A stretch of 64,000 bases of DNA from an uncultured Candidatus Saccharibacteria bacterium (GTDB lineage Bacteria > Patescibacteriota > Andersenbacteria > UBA10190). Under the pieces are notes generated by a model. That model saw only the letters and a list, made by a program, of their open reading frames with translations, did not search any database and was not told the origin of the DNA. Made by a program: the position numbers and the translations under genes. Shown here one piece after another: positions 5,550 through 38,721 of the stretch (positions within the stretch are counted from its first letter, which is position 1; every line of letters starts with the position of its first letter). The DNA lies in the NCBI GenBank assembly GCA_964359735.1, contig CAYHTZ010000004.1:409-64408 (forward strand), in the 5' to 3' direction.

Positions 5550-5632
5550 GGGGACGTGGCGGAACTGGTAGACGCGCACGCTTCAGGAGCGTGTGAGTAA
5601 CCCTCGTGAGAGTTCGATTCTCTCCGTCCCCA
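5550..5632 (+). tRNA. tRNA-Leu (anticodon CAG), type II with a long variable arm
   Basis: Cloverleaf read by hand: acceptor GGGGACG/CGTCCCC, anticodon stem CACGC/GCGTG, loop TTCAGGA, T-loop TTCGATT. The layout closely matches E. coli tRNA-Leu(CAG). CCA is not encoded. Confidence 0.85.
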
Positions 5633-5635
5633 CAT

Positions 5636-7129
5636 ATGAGTTATTATCGCAATCTGCGGTTCACCAAGAAAGGCCGGTGGGCTACCTATCCAGCGGACGC
5701 AGAGTTGTGGCATACGGACCATACGTCGCGCTACTTTGAAGACCATTTTGGGCTGTGGAGAGAAATATTAGCGGTCTGTATTGTCGGCAAAGAAAAAGAG
5801 GAAGAGCAGCACATGTATGTGCCGGAGTCTTTTGTAGAGAAGTTGCATGCACGGATCCAAGAGCTGACTGCCCAAGACCCCAAGGGTATGGAGAAATTGT
5901 TTATCCCATTCTACGCCAGTAAAGAGGCAGCCAAGAGAGAAATTCCTCAGATCAACCCGCCTGACCTCTCGAAAGTTTCAGGTGGGGAGCTAGCTGATAT
6001 CTATCTCGAGAACCGCGATCAAGCTCACCGCATTGTGATTTACGATCAGTTCACGTGGCTGGCGGAGGATTATTGGCCGCCTCTCATGGATGAGGTGCTG
6101 GTGGGGAAAATGAAACTTACAAAAGACTCGGAGGAGTACAATACAGTCCTTTTTGCGTTGATTAAGCCACGTGAAATATCAACCACACTAGAGGAAAAAC
6201 GCGAACTCATTGAAGAGACTCTCAAGATCCAGCAAGGGGCACGGACGGTCGAGGTGGCCGCCGAGCGCTTAGCCCACGATTTCGGCTGGATGCCGGTGCT
6301 TGCCTTTGGTGTGCCTTGGAACGCCGAGAGGTATGAGAGTGAGCTCAAAGACACCCTCACGCGGGAGACGAGCGCGCTTGAGAGAGAGCTAGCAGAACTT
6401 AAGAATTATACACAGATTCGCGACCGGGATATCGTAGGGATTGTGAAGAAATACGACATCAGCCCAGAAGACTTGCAGGTGTTTGTTGATTTTGGCTTGG
6501 CCATTGATACCCGGAATGAAGCGGAATACGTAGCATCCGTGGCTGGGTTCTACCTCTTGCCTATCTACGACGAGATGGTGAAGAGGTTCAAGATTTCCAT
6601 CAATGAGCTGAGAACACTGCTTGAGGATGAGATGGTGGCGTGTCTGCGGGGCGAGGCGGACCCTCGCGCAGTTCTCAAAAGTAAAGGGCGCATCATAGCC
6701 TGGGGGCTCGATGGGGAGAAGAAAGAGCGAGTTAATTTCTCGCCTGGGGAAGGCGAAGAAGTGTTTACGTATGTGGAATCTCAACAAAAGGCCGGTAAGG
6801 CTCAGGCTACGTATCTGACGCGAGGGATTACTGCCAATAAAGGCAAGGCGCGGGGCAAAGCGCGGCTTGTTCCCAACCCGAGTGATAACCACAAGGTAAA
6901 ACAGGGAGACATATTGATCGCGTATTCAACGATGGTGGATAACCTGCCGGCCATGAAAAACGCTTCGGCGATTGTGACCGAATCAGGCGGGATCACGTGT
7001 CATGCTGCCGTAGTATCGCGGGAATTTGGCATTCCCTGCATCGTGAGCATGAAAAATGCCATGAGCGATTTTAAGGATGGGGAAATGGTAGAGGTGGATG
7101 CGGACGCGGGGCTTGTGCGCCGGGTATGA
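5636..7129 (+). CDS. PEP-utilizing-enzyme mobile (phospho-His swivel) domain protein with a novel helical N-terminal domain
   Basis: The C-terminal ~100 aa carry GGITCHAAVVSREFGIPCIV (catalytic His in TCHAA). The N-terminal ~400 aa has no ATP-grasp glycine loops. The ORF-track start at 5606 overlaps the tRNA, so the first ATG after the tRNA (5636) is used. It is a paralog of 23742..25190. Confidence 0.7.
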   Translation: MSYYRNLRFTKKGRWATYPADAELWHTDHTSRYFEDHFGLWREILAVCIVGKEKEEEQHMYVPESFVEKLHARIQELTAQDPKGMEKLFIPFYASKEAAKREIPQINPPDLSKVSGGELADIYLENRDQAHRIVIYDQFTWLAEDYWPPLMDEVLVGKMKLTKDSEEYNTVLFALIKPREISTTLEEKRELIEETLKIQQGARTVEVAAERLAHDFGWMPVLAFGVPWNAERYESELKDTLTRETSALERELAELKNYTQIRDRDIVGIVKKYDISPEDLQVFVDFGLAIDTRNEAEYVASVAGFYLLPIYDEMVKRFKISINELRTLLEDEMVACLRGEADPRAVLKSKGRIIAWGLDGEKKERVNFSPGEGEEVFTYVESQQKAGKAQATYLTRGITANKGKARGKARLVPNPSDNHKVKQGDILIAYSTMVDNLPAMKNASAIVTESGGITCHAAVVSREFGIPCIVSMKNAMSDFKDGEMVEVDADAGLVRRV

Positions 7130-7380
7130 GCGAAGATTGGAAAGAGGTCGATGGCAAGCTCAGGGCCATGTTTGAATTCCCTGATTTCGCCGCGGCAATG
7201 GTGTTTGTGAACAAGGTGGCAGCGGCTGCAGAGAAAGCCAATCACCACCCGGATATTCTCATTCACTACAATAAGGTAGGCATGGAACTCTGGACCCATT
7301 CGGAGGGGAAAGTCACAGACAAAGACCGCCAGCTCGCCGAGAAAATTTCTCAATTGTTTACCGTGGGTCGTCGAGGGTGA
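7126..7380 (+). CDS. pterin-4a-carbinolamine dehydratase (PCD/DCoH)
   Basis: 84 aa with the E-x-HHPD signature (AEKANHHPDILIHY). It is translationally coupled (ATGA overlap) to the upstream PEP-utilizer gene. Confidence 0.85.
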   Translation: MSEDWKEVDGKLRAMFEFPDFAAAMVFVNKVAAAAEKANHHPDILIHYNKVGMELWTHSEGKVTDKDRQLAEKISQLFTVGRRG

Positions 7381-22176: not shown

Positions 22177-23613
22177 ATGACGGAGAAGGTCGTAAACCGT
22201 ACCAAAATTGTTTGCACCATTGGTCCGGCTTCGAGTGCAAAAAGCACGCTCAAGCAAATGATTGACGCGGGGATGGATGTGGCGCGGATTAATTTTTCCC
22301 ACGCTGACCAGGATAAGAATCTGGAGCTCATGGAGACGGTGAGAGCAGCGGCGAAGGAGTCCGGGAAAGAGGTGGCCATCCTTCAGGATTTGCAGGGGCC
22401 GAAGATCCGGGTGGGGGCGCTGCCTGGGGAAGGATTAGATTTAGTGGAGGGCAGCTTCGTGAAGATACGCGCGGGGGCTGTTCAAGCCGAGCATGGGGTC
22501 ATTCCTACTCCCTATGAACGTCTCGCTCAGGACGTCAGGCGCGGGGATAGGATTCTCATTGCTGATGGCACGCGTGAGCTTGAGGTGGTCGCGCGGTCTG
22601 GGCAGGTGATAACGGCCAAAGTGCTTTTAGGGGGAAGAGTTATTTCGCATAAAGGTATTAATGTACCCACGCGTACGCTCTCGGCGGAGGCGCTGACGGA
22701 TAAAGATGAAGAGGATTTGGCCTTTGGTCTTAAACACAATATTGATTTTGTGGCGATGTCCTTTGTCCGGACCGCTCAGGATGTGCAGTTACTTAAGAAG
22801 AAAATAAAAAAATACTTGCCCGAAGATGCCGAGCCGCCCCAGATAATCGTGAAGATCGAAAAACATGAGGCGTTGGAACATTTCGATGAGATTTTAGACG
22901 AGACGGACGCAGTGATGATTGCGCGGGGAGATTTAGGGCTCGAGACCCAAGCAACACTGGTGCCGATCCGACAAAAAGAGCTGATCGCGAAGTGCGTTGT
23001 GGCCGGGAAGCCAGTGATTACGGCGACGGAGATGTTGGGTTCGATGGAGAATAACCCCCGCCCGACCCGCGCGGAGGTGAGCGATGTAGCCAATGCGGTC
23101 ATCGACCACTCGGACGCGGTGATGCTCTCGGGCGAGACAGCGAACGGCCGGTACCCCTTGCGAGCAGTGGCCACTATGGCAGAGATTATTGAAAACACGG
23201 AGGTATCACCGCTGGATGATTTGCATCCTCACAAAGATGCCACCGGAGAGTCGGTTCCCTTTGCGGTCGCGGCGGGGGCAGTGGAACTGGCCCGGCACGT
23301 GGATGCCGCGGCGATACTGGTGACTACCCACTCAGGATATTCGGCGCGGGGGGTGGCGCGCTTTCGGGCAGAGCGGCCAGTGTTTGCGGCTACGGATAGC
23401 CCGCGCGTCTCGCACCAACTCTTGCTCTCATGGGGAGTAGTGCCGATTCTGATACAAGGGTACGGCCAGCCGGAGCAGATGACGCACTCGGCTCTTGACC
23501 ATCTGCATAAGCAAAAAAGAATCAAGAAAGGCGACCGAGTAGTGGGGGTCTCAGGCCTCGCTCGCTCTGAAGGCGGTTTTGACTCAGGCGTCCGCGTCGT
23601 GGAGGTTGCCTGA
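22177..23613 (+). CDS. pyk: pyruvate kinase
   Basis: TKIVCTIGPAS N-terminus and MIARGDLG active-site region; 478 aa. Confidence 0.9.
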   Translation: MTEKVVNRTKIVCTIGPASSAKSTLKQMIDAGMDVARINFSHADQDKNLELMETVRAAAKESGKEVAILQDLQGPKIRVGALPGEGLDLVEGSFVKIRAGAVQAEHGVIPTPYERLAQDVRRGDRILIADGTRELEVVARSGQVITAKVLLGGRVISHKGINVPTRTLSAEALTDKDEEDLAFGLKHNIDFVAMSFVRTAQDVQLLKKKIKKYLPEDAEPPQIIVKIEKHEALEHFDEILDETDAVMIARGDLGLETQATLVPIRQKELIAKCVVAGKPVITATEMLGSMENNPRPTRAEVSDVANAVIDHSDAVMLSGETANGRYPLRAVATMAEIIENTEVSPLDDLHPHKDATGESVPFAVAAGAVELARHVDAAAILVTTHSGYSARGVARFRAERPVFAATDSPRVSHQLLLSWGVVPILIQGYGQPEQMTHSALDHLHKQKRIKKGDRVVGVSGLARSEGGFDSGVRVVEVA

Positions 23614-23643: not shown

Positions 23644-23730
23644 GGTGGGGTGCGAGAGTGGTTTAATCGGGCAGTCTTGAAAACTGCTGTGGGTTAACGC
23701 CCACCGTGAGTTCGAATCTCACCCCCACCG
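23644..23730 (+). tRNA. tRNA-Ser (anticodon TGA), type II
   Basis: Acceptor GGTGGGG/CCCCACC, anticodon arm GCAGT-CTTGAAA-ACTGC, long variable arm TGTGGGTTAACGCCCACC, T-arm GTGAG-TTCGAAT-CTCAC. The layout matches E. coli tRNA-Ser(UGA). Confidence 0.8.
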
Positions 23731-23741
23731 CCGAAGGTCCT

Positions 23742-25190
23742 ATGACTAAAAACAATTGGGATATATACGAGAGGATTTATAGCAGTCACTGGTTTTTGAC
23801 AAGTTATAACGCCCAAGGTTTTGTCTTTGACTTCCCTGCCATGGGCGGCGGCAGCTTCATGACCCAAGCCGTGTACGTTATGGAGAAGGGCATGTGTCGC
23901 TATATATTCGACAGCGACGAATTCGAGCGGGCTGCGCAGTATACATCAGATCGTCTAATCAATGATGATAAATGGCGGGAGAATGTTTACCAGAACATTA
24001 ATTTGTACACGAGGCGGTATTTTGCGGCAGGTGAGAGATTACGAAAAACCCCTCTGGATACTCTTTCCCATGGAGAACTTGTGAAGATCGTTAGAGAGAT
24101 TATCCCTTTGCAACACTATCACCAAGTGTATAGTGTGCTGGCTAACGGCGTGGTGCTTGATGGGAGGAATCACTTGTCAGATAGGATTCGAGAGGAGTTA
24201 CGCTCTCTCATGGGAAGTCCAGATGACTTTGACGAGCAATGGTCTCTTCTTTCCCAGTCCGCCAAGATGAGTTTGAGGCAGCGCAAGGAACATGCTATCG
24301 CTCAGCTTGCCAGTGAGAGCAAAGTAACTTCCCGGGTAGTAGAGAGGAAGCTTCGCAACTTACATCAGAAGTACTGTTGGCTGGATTACAATAATATGGG
24401 CCCGGCGGCCTCATTTGAGAAGTTTGAGCAGGAGCTGGCGGAAGCTCGCAGCCAGAATAAGAACATTACTCTCAAAGAGGAACTCAAGGCTCTCAGAAAA
24501 AAACAGATCGATCTGATGCGCCGATTGAGAATCAGCCAGCGTGGGAAATTTCTCATTCGATTAGCGCAAGGAGTAATTTGGCAAAAAGGGTATCGCAAAG
24601 ATATGCAATATCACGGGTTTTATTGTTACGAAAATCTTTTTAGGGAATTGGCGCGCAGGCAAAACACCCCAGACTGGCAATCATTCTCGTATCTTTTTCC
24701 TTGGGAAGTGGTGCGTCACGTTCTTACCGGAAGTCATTCAGTGAAAGAACTCAATGAACGGCGAGAGTACTCTTGCTTGGTTGTGCGGAAAACAGGTCTG
24801 GAGGTTAAGGTGGGAAAGGCAGCGCAAGCGTTTGTAAAGGGCTTAGGGCTGCGGGAGGATTTCTCCACCATGACAGAAGCTAAAGGACAGTGTGCATATG
24901 CGGGCAAGGTCCGAGGAACAGTGAAAATTATTCAAACTCCGGCGGATATGGAGAAGATGAACGCTGGAGACGTTTTGGTTTCCCAGGCTACCAGCCCTGA
25001 CTTACTCTCGGCAATGAAGCGAGCGGGAGCGATTGTTACCAATACCGGCGGACTCATTTGCCATGCGGCGATTACTTCTCGTGAACTCAAAATACCGTGT
25101 ATTGTGGGGACCGCTAAAGCCACCTTGATCTTTAAGGATGGGGATCAGGTCGAAGTTGATGCCACCCACGGGCGTATAAGAAAGTTATGA
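23742..25190 (+). CDS. PEP-utilizing-enzyme mobile (phospho-His swivel) domain protein, paralog of 5636..7129
   Basis: C-terminal GGLICHAAITSRELKIPCIV. The N-terminal domain aligns with the first paralog (e.g. LDTLSHGEL vs LSKVSGGEL; CWLDYNNMGP...EKFEQEL vs GWMPVLAFGVPW...ERYESEL). The start is moved to the first Met clear of the tRNA. Confidence 0.7.
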   Translation: MTKNNWDIYERIYSSHWFLTSYNAQGFVFDFPAMGGGSFMTQAVYVMEKGMCRYIFDSDEFERAAQYTSDRLINDDKWRENVYQNINLYTRRYFAAGERLRKTPLDTLSHGELVKIVREIIPLQHYHQVYSVLANGVVLDGRNHLSDRIREELRSLMGSPDDFDEQWSLLSQSAKMSLRQRKEHAIAQLASESKVTSRVVERKLRNLHQKYCWLDYNNMGPAASFEKFEQELAEARSQNKNITLKEELKALRKKQIDLMRRLRISQRGKFLIRLAQGVIWQKGYRKDMQYHGFYCYENLFRELARRQNTPDWQSFSYLFPWEVVRHVLTGSHSVKELNERREYSCLVVRKTGLEVKVGKAAQAFVKGLGLREDFSTMTEAKGQCAYAGKVRGTVKIIQTPADMEKMNAGDVLVSQATSPDLLSAMKRAGAIVTNTGGLICHAAITSRELKIPCIVGTAKATLIFKDGDQVEVDATHGRIRKL

Positions 25191-25849
25191 GCAAGATCAA
25201 GGCAGTTATTTACGATGTGGACGACCTGATGGTTGATTCATACGCGTTGCATGTGGAGGCGTCGGAGAAAGCACTCGAACGGTACGGTCACAGATTCGAT
25301 GAGCTGCCCGAGGAGCTGCGGTCACACTTTGTGGGGAGACGGGTGATCGATAATTTGAAGGACACGGTGGCGTACCTCAAGCTCGATGTTGACCCTGAAG
25401 TCATGTATCAAGAACGATTGGCGCTTTTTCATAGACTCGTCCGCGAGAAACTTGAAGCCAGGCCGGGGCTGCAAGAATCCATGACGCTTTTCCGCAGGCA
25501 CAACTTGCGTCTCGCAATTGCTTCATCGGGGGCGGGGGAGTACCTCGATGCAGTGCTGGAAAAGTTTAACCTCGCCGGGTACTTCGAAGTGATTATCTCC
25601 GGCGGGGATGTGCAAAAGGGGAAGCCTGACCCCGAAACTTATTTGGTGGCTGTGCAGAAGCTGGGGCTTACCCCAGCTGAATGCCTGGTCCTGGAAGATG
25701 CCAAGAACGGTGTAGAGTCGGCAAAAGCGGCGGGTTGTAAATGTATCGCCATACGCAACCCAAACACTCCAGTTCAAGACCACTCGGGGGCGGACAAAGT
25801 TCTTAATTCTCTCAGCGACGTTACCATTGAGATGGTGGAGTCGTTGTAA
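25187..25849 (+). CDS. HAD-IA family hydrolase (beta-phosphoglucomutase-like phosphatase)
   Basis: DxD motif IYDVDDLMVDS, later K...GKPDP and a DAKNG motif IV. The start overlaps the stop of the upstream PEP-utilizer paralog. Confidence 0.75.
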   Translation: MSKIKAVIYDVDDLMVDSYALHVEASEKALERYGHRFDELPEELRSHFVGRRVIDNLKDTVAYLKLDVDPEVMYQERLALFHRLVREKLEARPGLQESMTLFRRHNLRLAIASSGAGEYLDAVLEKFNLAGYFEVIISGGDVQKGKPDPETYLVAVQKLGLTPAECLVLEDAKNGVESAKAAGCKCIAIRNPNTPVQDHSGADKVLNSLSDVTIEMVESL

Positions 25850-25853
25850 AAAT

Positions 25854-26174
25854 TTACTCTGGCCAGAAGATGAGAGCGAGTGCAACCACTCCCAAACCGA
25901 TGCCGACCATTTGCACGCGGGTCAAGACTTCCTTGTAGAAGATGACGCCAATCACAAATGAGAGAACTGCCGAAGTAACGTAGAAGACCATAGCGCCTTT
26001 CGTCAAGCCCGAGCCGGCGCGGATGGCGCCCAGCCAAAAAGCGTTGGCAATGATGTAACAAGAAATGCCGGCTACCCAGTATGGCCAAGTGCCGCGGATT
26101 GAGTATTCTTTGGAGAATATGTCAGCCACTGCCTCAAAACCGATAAGGAGAGCCAACAAGGGTATCCAGCTCAT
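25854..26174 (-). CDS. small 4-TM transporter (SMR/DMT-superfamily-like)
   Basis: 106 aa and four predicted TM helices, at the length of SMR/EamA half-transporters. Confidence 0.55.
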   Translation of the reverse strand: MSWIPLLALLIGFEAVADIFSKEYSIRGTWPYWVAGISCYIIANAFWLGAIRAGSGLTKGAMVFYVTSAVLSFVIGVIFYKEVLTRVQMVGIGLGVVALALIFWPE

Positions 26175-26218
26175 GGGGTTATATTATCCTGAAATTGTAC
26201 TTTGAATAATTTTGTCTG

Positions 26219-26245
26219 AAAAAACCGGCGCTAGGCGCCGGTTTT
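26219..26245 (-). terminator. rho-independent terminator (bidirectional-capable): AAAAAACCGGCGC-TAG-GCGCCGGTTTT
   Basis: 7-bp GC stem and 3-nt loop flanked by an A-run and a T-run. It lies immediately downstream of the minus-strand DUF2795 gene. Confidence 0.8.
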
Positions 26246-26265
26246 AAAGAGAGTTAGTGTTCGAT

Positions 26266-26502
26266 CTACATGCCGAGTGCTTTCTCCACCTCTTCCGCGG
26301 AGTTATAGGTGCCCTCAGGAAGATTATCCATAAACCATTTCTTGTCTTCGGCGGTGAAATCTGACATGCCGTTACAGGCGGCAACGAGATCTGCCTTTGT
26401 AGCAGGGTAACCCACATGTTCTTTCAAGTGCTGCTTCGCTCCAGCCATATTTTTCATCATACGGATCACCTCCTTGCAGTTAGTCTTTCTTGACTGTACC
26501 AA
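26266..26502 (-). CDS. DUF2795 family small protein
   Basis: HLKEHVGYPATKADLVAACNG...LPEGTYNSAEEVEKALG matches the DUF2795 pattern. The true start is probably one of the internal Met codons (about 60-64 aa product). Confidence 0.65.
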   Translation of the reverse strand: MVQSRKTNCKEVIRMMKNMAGAKQHLKEHVGYPATKADLVAACNGMSDFTAEDKKWFMDNLPEGTYNSAEEVEKALGM

Positions 26503-26579
26503 TGTTGGAGTGCCTAGCGCAAGGATGTGGCAAGTTCCTTCTTGAATCCGATGACCAGTTTGAGTATGCTCAGATACTT

Positions 26580-27455
26580 ATGCCAGAACTTCCTGAAGTG
26601 GAAACTATTCGTCGAGGGCTGGTGCAGCGTGTCCTGAAAAAGAAAATCCGGGGGGTAGAAATCCGCGCGGAGAAGGTGGTGAAGAATGACCCGAAAGAAT
26701 TTATTCGCACGCTTACGGGGAACACATTCACCAAGATCGATCGACGAGGAAAGCTCCTTATTTTACACCTCCGGGGTGTAAAGCGGGCGGAAAAGCCGCG
26801 ATTTCTATTAATCCATATGAAACTCACTGGCCAGCTCATTTACCAGCAAGGGGAAACGTTGGTAGCGGGTGGGCACTATGCTCCTTCCTTGGCACACCCA
26901 CTGCCGCACCGGCATACGCGCGTTATCTTTGAATTTGCCGATGGTTCGCGCCTGTTTTTCAATGATTTACGTAAATTTGGTGTCCTCAAGATTGTTGATA
27001 GAGCAGCGCGAGATTTGGTGTTGGCGGCGTACGGCGTCGAGCCCTTATCACGCGAGTTTACGTGGGAGCGGTTTCAGAAGGCGTTAGGGAGGCGGCAAGC
27101 ACCGCTGAAAGCGGTGCTCCTGAATCAAGCGCTGATTGCGGGGTTGGGGAATATTTACGTGGATGAGGTGGCCTGGCACGCGCGCGTGAGCCCCAGCCGC
27201 CGCGTAGCGCGTCTGACCGAGACGGAGCGCAAAAATCTTTTCCGGGCGATACCCAAAGTTCTGATCGAGGCTATTGCCTGGGGCGGCACAACATTCCGGC
27301 ATTTTCGTAATTCTCAGGGCAAGGAGGGCAATTACAGCGACCGCCTGCGTGCGTATGGAAGAAGTAGGAAGGCCTGCCGGCGATGCGGGGGAGTTATGGT
27401 ACGCACAACGGTGGCGCAACGCGGCACCACATATTGTCCCAGGTGTCAGAAGTGA
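26580..27455 (+). CDS. mutM: formamidopyrimidine-DNA glycosylase (Fpg/MutM)
   Basis: Starts MPELPEVETIRRGL (catalytic Pro2-Glu3). The C-terminal zinc finger is CRRCGG...YCPRCQK. The ORF track extends 5' to 26490, but MPELPEV is the conserved N-terminus. Confidence 0.85.
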   Translation: MPELPEVETIRRGLVQRVLKKKIRGVEIRAEKVVKNDPKEFIRTLTGNTFTKIDRRGKLLILHLRGVKRAEKPRFLLIHMKLTGQLIYQQGETLVAGGHYAPSLAHPLPHRHTRVIFEFADGSRLFFNDLRKFGVLKIVDRAARDLVLAAYGVEPLSREFTWERFQKALGRRQAPLKAVLLNQALIAGLGNIYVDEVAWHARVSPSRRVARLTETERKNLFRAIPKVLIEAIAWGGTTFRHFRNSQGKEGNYSDRLRAYGRSRKACRRCGGVMVRTTVAQRGTTYCPRCQK

Positions 27456-38599: not shown

Positions 38600-38649
38600 C
38601 CGGTTCCCTGCCTGAACGAACGTAATACATGGGCGAAGTCATCTGATTG

Positions 38650-38721
38650 CTCCCGGGGTCGGATTCGAACCGACGACCATCACCTTAACAGGGTGTTGCT
38701 CTGCCGCTGAGCTACCCGGGA
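38650..38721 (-). tRNA. tRNA-Asn (anticodon GTT)
   Basis: The reverse complement reads TCCCGGG-TA-GCTCAGCGGCAGAGC-A-ACACC-CTGTTAA-GGTGA-TGGTC-GTCGG-TTCGAAT-CCGAC-CCCGGGA-G. U33 and A37 are present and the anticodon is GTT. Confidence 0.75.

Follow-up and report, generated by a model that had tools for sequence, protein, structure and literature searches.

The locus

The subject of this report is a gene for a two-domain protein with a phosphohistidine swivel domain, called copy 2 here. It lies in a 64,000-nt stretch of an uncultured Candidatus Saccharibacteria bacterium of the Patescibacteriota (contig CAYHTZ010000004.1, positions 409 to 64,408); "the window" refers to that whole stretch as analysed, and all coordinates are counted from its first letter. 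A second gene of the kind, copy 1, is present in the same window. The features around copy 2 are as follows; RPH is rifampin phosphotransferase, the rifamycin-inactivating enzyme to which the protein is compared below, and PEP is phosphoenolpyruvate.

22177..23613, + strand: pyk, pyruvate kinase, with Pfam matches PF00224 (PK) and PF02887 (PK_C); ends 30 nt upstream of tRNA-Ser
23644..23732, + strand: tRNA-Ser(UGA), found by ARAGORN; type II (long variable arm), CCA not encoded
23733..23737, + strand: Shine-Dalgarno sequence GAAGG, read from the sequence, 4 nt before the copy 2 ATG
23742..25190, + strand: copy 2 open reading frame (ORF), 482 amino acids (aa), intact
23742..24866, + strand: N-terminal, mostly helical domain of copy 2 (residues 1-375); homolog of the rifampin-binding (second-substrate) domain in RPH and in HpeH-type subunits
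24585..24599, + strand: near-invariant K282-G-Y-R285-K286 motif, from conservation in the 96-sequence family profile A1
24879..25190, + strand: C-terminal phosphohistidine swivel domain (PEP-utilizers, PF00391), by Pfam
25187..25849, + strand: HAD-IA/beta-phosphoglucomutase-family hydrolase, Pfam HAD_2 (6.5e-32)

A first-pass annotation, made from the letters of the sequence, had placed the ORF downstream of pyk on the same strand and translationally coupled to a HAD phosphatase, and both points stand. The start codon of the hydrolase overlaps the TGA stop of copy 2 as ATGA, as checked in the sequence; against TIGR02009 the hydrolase scores 126 bits, under the cutoff. The ATG at 23742 is the start codon of copy 2. 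The N-terminus it gives, MTKNNWDIYERIYSSHWFL, agrees with the consensus start of 95 homologs, and the N-terminal consensus of the orthologs is MxxxxEIFERxYxxHWFL. The tRNA-Ser(TGA) just 5' of copy 2 was also correctly located, with a gap that is not the 12 nt given for it; measured from the ARAGORN end it is 9 nt, and from the discriminator base 11 nt. After the discriminator, the spacer reads CC-GAAGG-TCCT and holds the Shine-Dalgarno sequence and nothing else. A promoter and terminator scan of 21.6-26.4 kb gave signals at chance level.

The same tRNA matches the tRNA-Sec model (Rfam RF01852, 23644..23729, 50.8 bits against a cutoff of 47). That identity was rejected since the anticodon is TGA and not TCA, within an anticodon loop read as CT-TGA-AA, and the acceptor stem has 7 bp. 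By these features the match is a cross-match of a long-variable-arm tRNA.

Domain content and fold of copy 2

Pfam recognizes only PF00391 in copy 2, at residues 407-477 (E 1.3e-22). The swivel motif is GGLICHAAITSRELKIPCIV. The catalytic His441 (codon 25062..25064) lies within T433-N-T-G-G-L-I-C-H441, which fits the T/S-x-x-G-G-x-x-x-H motif as defined in PMC12167813. It is invariant in the 96 sequences of A1, which is also the alignment behind the AlphaFold2 model, and in a hidden Markov model (HMM) alignment to 5fbs it falls on the catalytic His825 of RPH. An ATP-grasp domain is absent from the polypeptide by Pfam, and the ORF begins 9 nt past the tRNA.

The region ahead of the swivel had been described as a novel domain, and this is where the first-pass annotation has to be revised. 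A1 positions 232-485 align to residues 625-866 of Listeria RPH (E 2.6e-27), so that the profile homology extends 150 residues upstream of the swivel into the rifampin-binding domain. The NCBIfam RIF_Ptrans_rph and PRK06241-group models likewise align copy 2 from residue 217 (217-479). The AlphaFold2 model has a pLDDT of 95.3 and a pTM of 0.91. In a Foldseek comparison to the PDB, its top six matches are all RPH of Listeria (RPH-Lm), at E 1.7e-13 to 1.5e-11 with about 560 columns aligned; next in rank come pyruvate kinase, PPDK and Enzyme I, which match through the swivel domain only. By model and profile, then, the N-domain is an RPH-type substrate-binding domain and not a new fold.

Within this region, the K282-G-Y-R285-K286 motif aligns on G-Y-R666-E667-Y-P-K670 of RPH (HMM alignment, 5fbs), with a register that is uncertain by 3 residues. 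Arg666, Glu667 and Lys670 are the second-phosphotransfer motif of RPH, as shown by mutagenesis (PMC4844700). Copy 2 keeps all 51 of the A1 columns of at least 90% conservation, catalytic His441 included, which argues against its decay. In this respect the first-pass annotation was right to see a conserved phosphotransfer protein here, as opposed to a PEP synthase in decay.

A diverged paralog in the same window

The features around copy 1, and the remaining tRNA of the three that ARAGORN finds in the window, are as follows.

5550..5633, + strand: tRNA-Leu(CAG), found by ARAGORN; Rfam RF00005, 55.7 bits; directly abuts copy 1
5636..7129, + strand: copy 1 ORF, 497 aa, same two-domain layout as copy 2
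7126..7380, + strand: pterin-4a-carbinolamine dehydratase (DCoH-like), 84 aa, Pfam PF01329 (4.1e-26); ATGA-coupled to copy 1
38649..38721, - strand: tRNA-Asn, found by ARAGORN

Each copy is therefore adjacent to a tRNA and coupled to a small enzyme, as first noted: the HAD hydrolase for copy 2 and the 84-aa dehydratase for copy 1. For a dikinase subunit the dehydratase makes an unusual partner, and it is not seen beside the relatives elsewhere. The ATG of copy 1 (5636) is 2 nt past the end of tRNA-Leu and 3 nt past its discriminator base. The start region (5625..5640) has no Shine-Dalgarno sequence, and the tRNA-Leu is without an encoded CCA.

By BLASTP, only the C-terminal 102 aa of copy 2 align to copy 1 (48% identity, 6e-29), with no significant N-terminal alignment. 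Taken alone, that is the failure to align outside the swivel domain that the first-pass annotation had named as evidence against its pair of paralogs. Profile comparison reverses the outcome. An HMM of the N-domain alone (copy 2 residues 1-375, with the homologs) matches copy 1 at E 4e-19, and hhalign joins the N-domains of the two clades over 331 columns with 99.7% probability (E 1.2e-26). The latter alignment pairs LSKVSGGEL with LDTLSHGEL and GWMPVLAFGVPWNAERYESEL with CWLDYNNMGPAASFEKFEQEL, which are the anchor motifs first used to propose the relationship. By these profile alignments, copies 1 and 2 are true paralogs, N-domains included.

Relatives and their linkage to an ATP-grasp partner

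Orthologs of copy 2 are about 480 aa long, 45-66% identical to it, and labelled "PEP-utilizing enzyme" in Patescibacteria and DPANN archaea. Two partial matches at 100% identity, AAB538_00725 and AAB538_04185, come from a fragmented Patescibacteria metagenome-assembled genome. Eleven distinct copy 2 ortholog loci were examined, and about 95 related loci were compared overall. The neighbours of the orthologs, with the window for comparison, include the following.

PPDK_N gene, directly upstream or downstream, same strand, usually overlapping (often by 4 nt) or only a few nt apart: L004, L088, L090, L092, L095
NUDIX, same-strand neighbour: L001, L094
His_Phos_1, same-strand neighbour: L086
Nucleotidyltransferase, same-strand neighbour: L091
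317-aa ORF without a Pfam match, same-strand neighbour: L087
tRNA upstream and HAD downstream: the window

The recurrent partner of the family is thus a PPDK_N (ATP-grasp) gene or domain, which the first-pass annotation did not foresee. One copy 2 ortholog, P0072 (801 aa), is fused to PPDK_N. The closest relatives of copy 1 are 38-62% identical to it, and at least nine of them carry PPDK_N at the N-terminus of a fused protein of about 820-850 aa. The fusion junction maps to residue 3 of copy 1, and the ortholog-conserved sequence of copy 1 begins at that same residue. PPDK_N also exists in Patescibacteria as many highly conserved standalone proteins of 312-320 aa. They occur within clusters of at least five swivel genes in a complete Falkowbacteria genome (L098, CP066698.1) and in a 922-kb contig, and these clusters also hold HAD, His_Phos_1-like or acylphosphatase genes. 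Unfused orthologs with no adjacent ATP-grasp gene are also common in other genomes.

Searched with the N-domain alone, 1.84 billion proteins yield 449 representatives (clusters at 50% identity, E <= 1e-3). A metagenome scan for close orthologs gave 6 loci only, and a scan of genome contigs gave mostly generic swivel-domain matches.

Copy 2 orthologs of 47-61% identity are found in Patescibacteria (L001, L086, L094) and in DPANN (L004, L095; titles Nanoarchaeota and Altiarchaeota), and L095 has the archaeal-type neighbours eIF-6, Spt5 and L35Ae. Their presence in both domains implies inter-domain horizontal transfer of the gene. In the window, the GC content is 0.49-0.50 over 24001..27000 (copy 2, HAD and the following small genes), compared to 0.53-0.57 in the flanks; this mild dip at 24-27 kb could reflect an older horizontal acquisition.

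Two ORFs tightly coupled to copy 2 orthologs have no Pfam match, L087 9045..9998 (317 aa) and L088 7446..8468 (341 aa, truncated at the contig end), and these are possibly further partners of the system. A separate protein, P0085 (392 aa, from a contig of 1581 bp), combines a PF13271 (DUF4062) N-terminus with part of the family N-domain, which is 55% identical to residues 84-311 of copy 2. This reflects either a genuine domain shuffle or a short chimeric contig.

Arrays and giant multi-module ORFs

More distant members of the family also occur in tandem arrays. The longest, L011 1..21452 (Nealsonbacteria MHMM01000017.1), has about 11 highly divergent paralogs in 21 kb; L018, L020 and L026 have 8 paralogs each, and arrays are also found in L010, L098 and L099. 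In some arrays the paralogs are accompanied by a single standalone PPDK_N gene and by HAD, His_Phos_1-like or acylphosphatase genes. The same composition appears in single polypeptides. The ORF at L025 470..11755 (Woesearchaeota JAFGGS010000004.1) encodes a protein of 3761 aa in which one PPDK_N is combined with 8 PEP-utilizers domains, and other giant uninterrupted ORFs with PPDK_N first are L013 384..4319, L040 3968..8167, L045 5549..11533 and L030 1..8814. In these giant ORFs, a single PPDK_N is followed by several modules, each an RPH-like binding domain plus a swivel. The literature searched yielded no description of such an architecture of one charger and many modules, and no paper describing the Patescibacteria/DPANN family.

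Neighbourhood conservation and the tRNA junctions

The first-pass annotation had proposed a conserved phosphotransfer module and had suggested searching other genomes for the arrangement of pyk, tRNA, swivel gene and HAD. In phmmer comparisons of about 95 other loci, essentially no pyk, HAD or pterin dehydratase gene stands beside a family member, and pyk is within 10 kb of one in only a single locus. The 11 ortholog loci and the related loci all show other neighbours, and the arrangement is peculiar to this genome. Pfam was also run on 70 genes that directly adjoin family genes on the same strand in other loci:

PEP-utilizers (further divergent paralogs): 13 of 70
His_Phos_1: 3 of 70
NUDIX: 2 of 70
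HD: 2 of 70

No HAD family is among the 25 most frequent neighbour families listed for these 70. The recurrence of phosphohydrolases beside family genes is suggestive, but the link is weak.

The tRNA junctions are likewise local. Elsewhere, no same-strand tRNA lies directly 5' of any of about 100 family ORFs; among copy 1 orthologs, one is preceded by a different tRNA at a distance of 143 nt and another by no tRNA. Downstream of 32 tRNAs in related loci, the closest ORF start on the same strand lies at least 16 nt away, mostly more than 40 nt, compared to 2 and 9 nt here. The chance of both paralogs directly following tRNAs is about 0.002 by a naive, post hoc estimate that was not computed with a tool. 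Since spacings of 2 and 9 nt leave no room for a private promoter, co-transcription of each paralog with its upstream tRNA, an idea raised in the first-pass annotation, is reasonable and indeed nearly unavoidable. Processing of the tRNA-Leu 3' end would then leave the copy 1 mRNA with a leader of 3 nt or less, essentially leaderless, in the manner of mitochondrial tRNA punctuation.

An integration scar was considered as the cause of the tRNA adjacency, and it is unsupported: no att-like direct repeats of the tRNA 3' ends were found downstream of either paralog. No integrase gene was seen in the ORF lists around either copy, most of those ORFs not having been scanned with Pfam.

Likeness to known systems

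The layout of copy 2 is that of RPH minus the ATP-grasp domain, and this is the layout of the H component in three named two-component systems: HpeHI of Rhodococcus rhodochrous, CreHI of Corynebacterium glutamicum and PpsAB, the phenylphosphate synthase of Thauera aromatica. In these, H has a rifampin-binding-like domain plus a swivel, and I is a separate ATP-grasp protein (PMC12167813). HpeH, CreH and PpsA share with copy 2 a binding domain followed by a C-terminal His swivel, the T/S-x-x-G-G-x-x-x-H motif, and the lack of an ATP-grasp domain in the polypeptide; their ATP-grasp protein is often encoded next door, whereas no ATP-grasp gene lies within the 64 kb around copy 2. They differ in size as well. 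Copy 2 has about 480 aa, whereas the PRK08296-type NCBIfam models have about 570-630 positions and align to copy 2 over the swivel domain only. Finally, unlike them, the copy 2 family is found in Patescibacteria and DPANN, in gene contexts unrelated to aromatic catabolism.

Taken over its two domains, copy 2 is closest in structure to RPH-Lm (PDB 5FBS/5FBT/5FBU and 5HV1), with which the PRK06241 "PEP synthase-like" family is grouped here. The homology covers RPH 625-866, including His825 and the Arg666/Lys670 region, and the fused relatives P0072 and P0125-P0129 have the full three-domain RPH architecture. Copy 2 itself is only about 15-17% identical to RPH, is without the ATP-grasp domain, and does not have a conserved counterpart of Glu667. 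Nothing points to rifamycin as its substrate. Assignment as a rifamycin-inactivating RPH was rejected, with 58.4 bits against a cutoff of 999 and 44.5 against 1700 for the models NF041857 and NF000283, in addition to the missing ATP-grasp domain.

To PEP synthase (PEPS) and PPDK the relationship is confined to the swivel, which is 48-55% identical to PEPS swivels and would be expected to use the same ping-pong phosphohistidine chemistry. Copy 2 has neither PPDK_N nor the PEP/pyruvate TIM barrel; its swivel is C-terminal where that of PEPS and PPDK is central, and the fold of the N-domain differs. Identity as PEPS or PPDK was rejected, as the PEPS equivalog models score 99-112 bits, below their cutoffs of 598-740, with matches confined to the swivel, and the flanking domains are absent. 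PTS Enzyme I was rejected on the same kind of evidence (residues 431-479 only, 27.9 bits against a cutoff of 341.7). The prodigiosin-type ligases PigC, RedH and HapC belong to the same RPH-like superfamily and have a C-terminal swivel. Unlike copy 2, they are fused three-domain proteins of about 880 aa whose genes belong to pigment clusters; their NCBIfam models match over the swivel only, and no similarity to copy 2 was detected outside it.

Interpretation

We consider copy 2 to be, with good probability, the H-type component of a two-component RPH-like small-molecule dikinase, consisting of a second-substrate domain and a phosphohistidine swivel. The basis for this is observed here: the fold, the catalytic histidine, a phosphotransfer motif conserved in the family, and orthologs that are recurrently linked or fused to PPDK_N. 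In the mechanism we propose, a separate I-type (PPDK_N) protein would bind ATP and pass the beta-phosphate to His441, with release of AMP and Pi. The charged swivel would swing back onto its own helical N-domain, where the K282/R285/K286 motif may position the phosphoryl group for transfer to the hydroxyl of a small molecule. A single ATP-grasp partner, encoded outside of the window, would presumably serve both paralogs. The HAD phosphatase that overlaps copy 2 may act at a later point of the pathway to take off the phosphate, by a weak parallel to the Hpe pathway, which later dephosphorylates its intermediate (PMC12167813).

Three observations count against this assignment. Six-frame profile HMM searches (--max) of the window detect no PPDK_N and no PEP/pyruvate TIM barrel, and tblastn with the N-termini of 10 fused forms detects neither an ATP-grasp partner nor a pseudogene remnant of one. 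The partner must then be elsewhere in the genome or be absent, and by the pattern in relatives it is likely elsewhere. Only 16 of 50 related loci hold PPDK_N within 10 kb, from which unlinked partners would also appear to be normal. Lastly, Glu667 of RPH is not conserved in the family; depending on the register, the aligned residue is Gly or Lys.

If the partner were absent, copy 2 might be an orphan H component that exchanges phosphoryl groups between a metabolite and an acceptor, perhaps fed by glycolytic donors near pyk and with the HAD hydrolase pulling the reaction. There is a precedent in HpeH, which alone transfers phosphate from 4-phosphoacetophenone to acetovanillone (PMC12167813). 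The lack of an ATP-grasp gene in 64 kb is as this would have it, and so is the recurrence of phosphohydrolases: His_Phos_1, NUDIX and HD in the neighbour scan, HAD and acylphosphatase in the clusters, and HAD here. However, linkage or fusion to PPDK_N recurs among the orthologs and close relatives, the adjacency to pyk and HAD is not conserved, and there is no PEP-binding domain to charge the histidine from PEP. We consider such an exchange enzyme unlikely. Less likely again is that the two genes are non-functional remnants of a fused or operonic dikinase, the ATP-grasp part having been lost as rearrangements placed tRNAs at their 5' ends. It is the case that the ATP-grasp domain or gene of the relatives sits exactly where the tRNAs abut both copies, and that no partner remains in the window. 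However, both ORFs are full length and coupled to intact downstream genes, copy 2 has lost none of its 51 conserved columns or the catalytic histidine, no remnant of a PPDK_N pseudogene was found in the window, and unfused orthologs without an adjacent ATP-grasp gene are common elsewhere.

A functional tie to the neighbours is the least probable of the alternatives, and we give it very little weight. Copy 2 would then regulate or partner pyruvate kinase, as the PEP-utilizer-like C-terminal domain of the Bacillus-type enzymes might, or else act on the adjacent tRNA. Its swivel does resemble the extra C-terminal domain of the Geobacillus and Staphylococcus pyruvate kinases (2e28, 3t05), and the two tRNA junctions are tighter than any among the 32 tRNAs of related loci and improbable by the naive estimate given above. 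Yet tRNAs and pyk are not linked to the family elsewhere in this way, and the N-domain has a small-molecule-binding fold. Assignment to the H component of a split dikinase remains the reading that we favour, and the pyk-tRNA-HAD neighbourhood of this genome should not be read as a functional module.

On this reading, the family is a large subfamily of the known RPH-like two-component dikinase class, strikingly expanded in Patescibacteria and DPANN. The labels "PEP-utilizing enzyme" and "phosphoenolpyruvate synthase" attached to its members in these groups can mislead metabolic reconstructions toward gluconeogenic PEP synthesis. Recognition of the H type corrects that reading and points to many uncharacterised enzymes that phosphorylate small molecules within an otherwise minimal metabolism. 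It is possible, if rather doubtful at present, that across Patescibacteria and DPANN one conserved ATP-grasp charger serves many fast-diverging binding-swivel modules, which would trap or detoxify molecules derived from the host or community, with phosphohydrolases acting downstream. The modules would then take the form of scattered single genes (as here, on tRNA-punctuated transcripts, with copy 1 leaderless), of arrays of up to about 11 genes, or of up to 8 modules behind one ATP-grasp domain. The substrates of these enzymes could bear on how symbionts scavenge or detoxify compounds.

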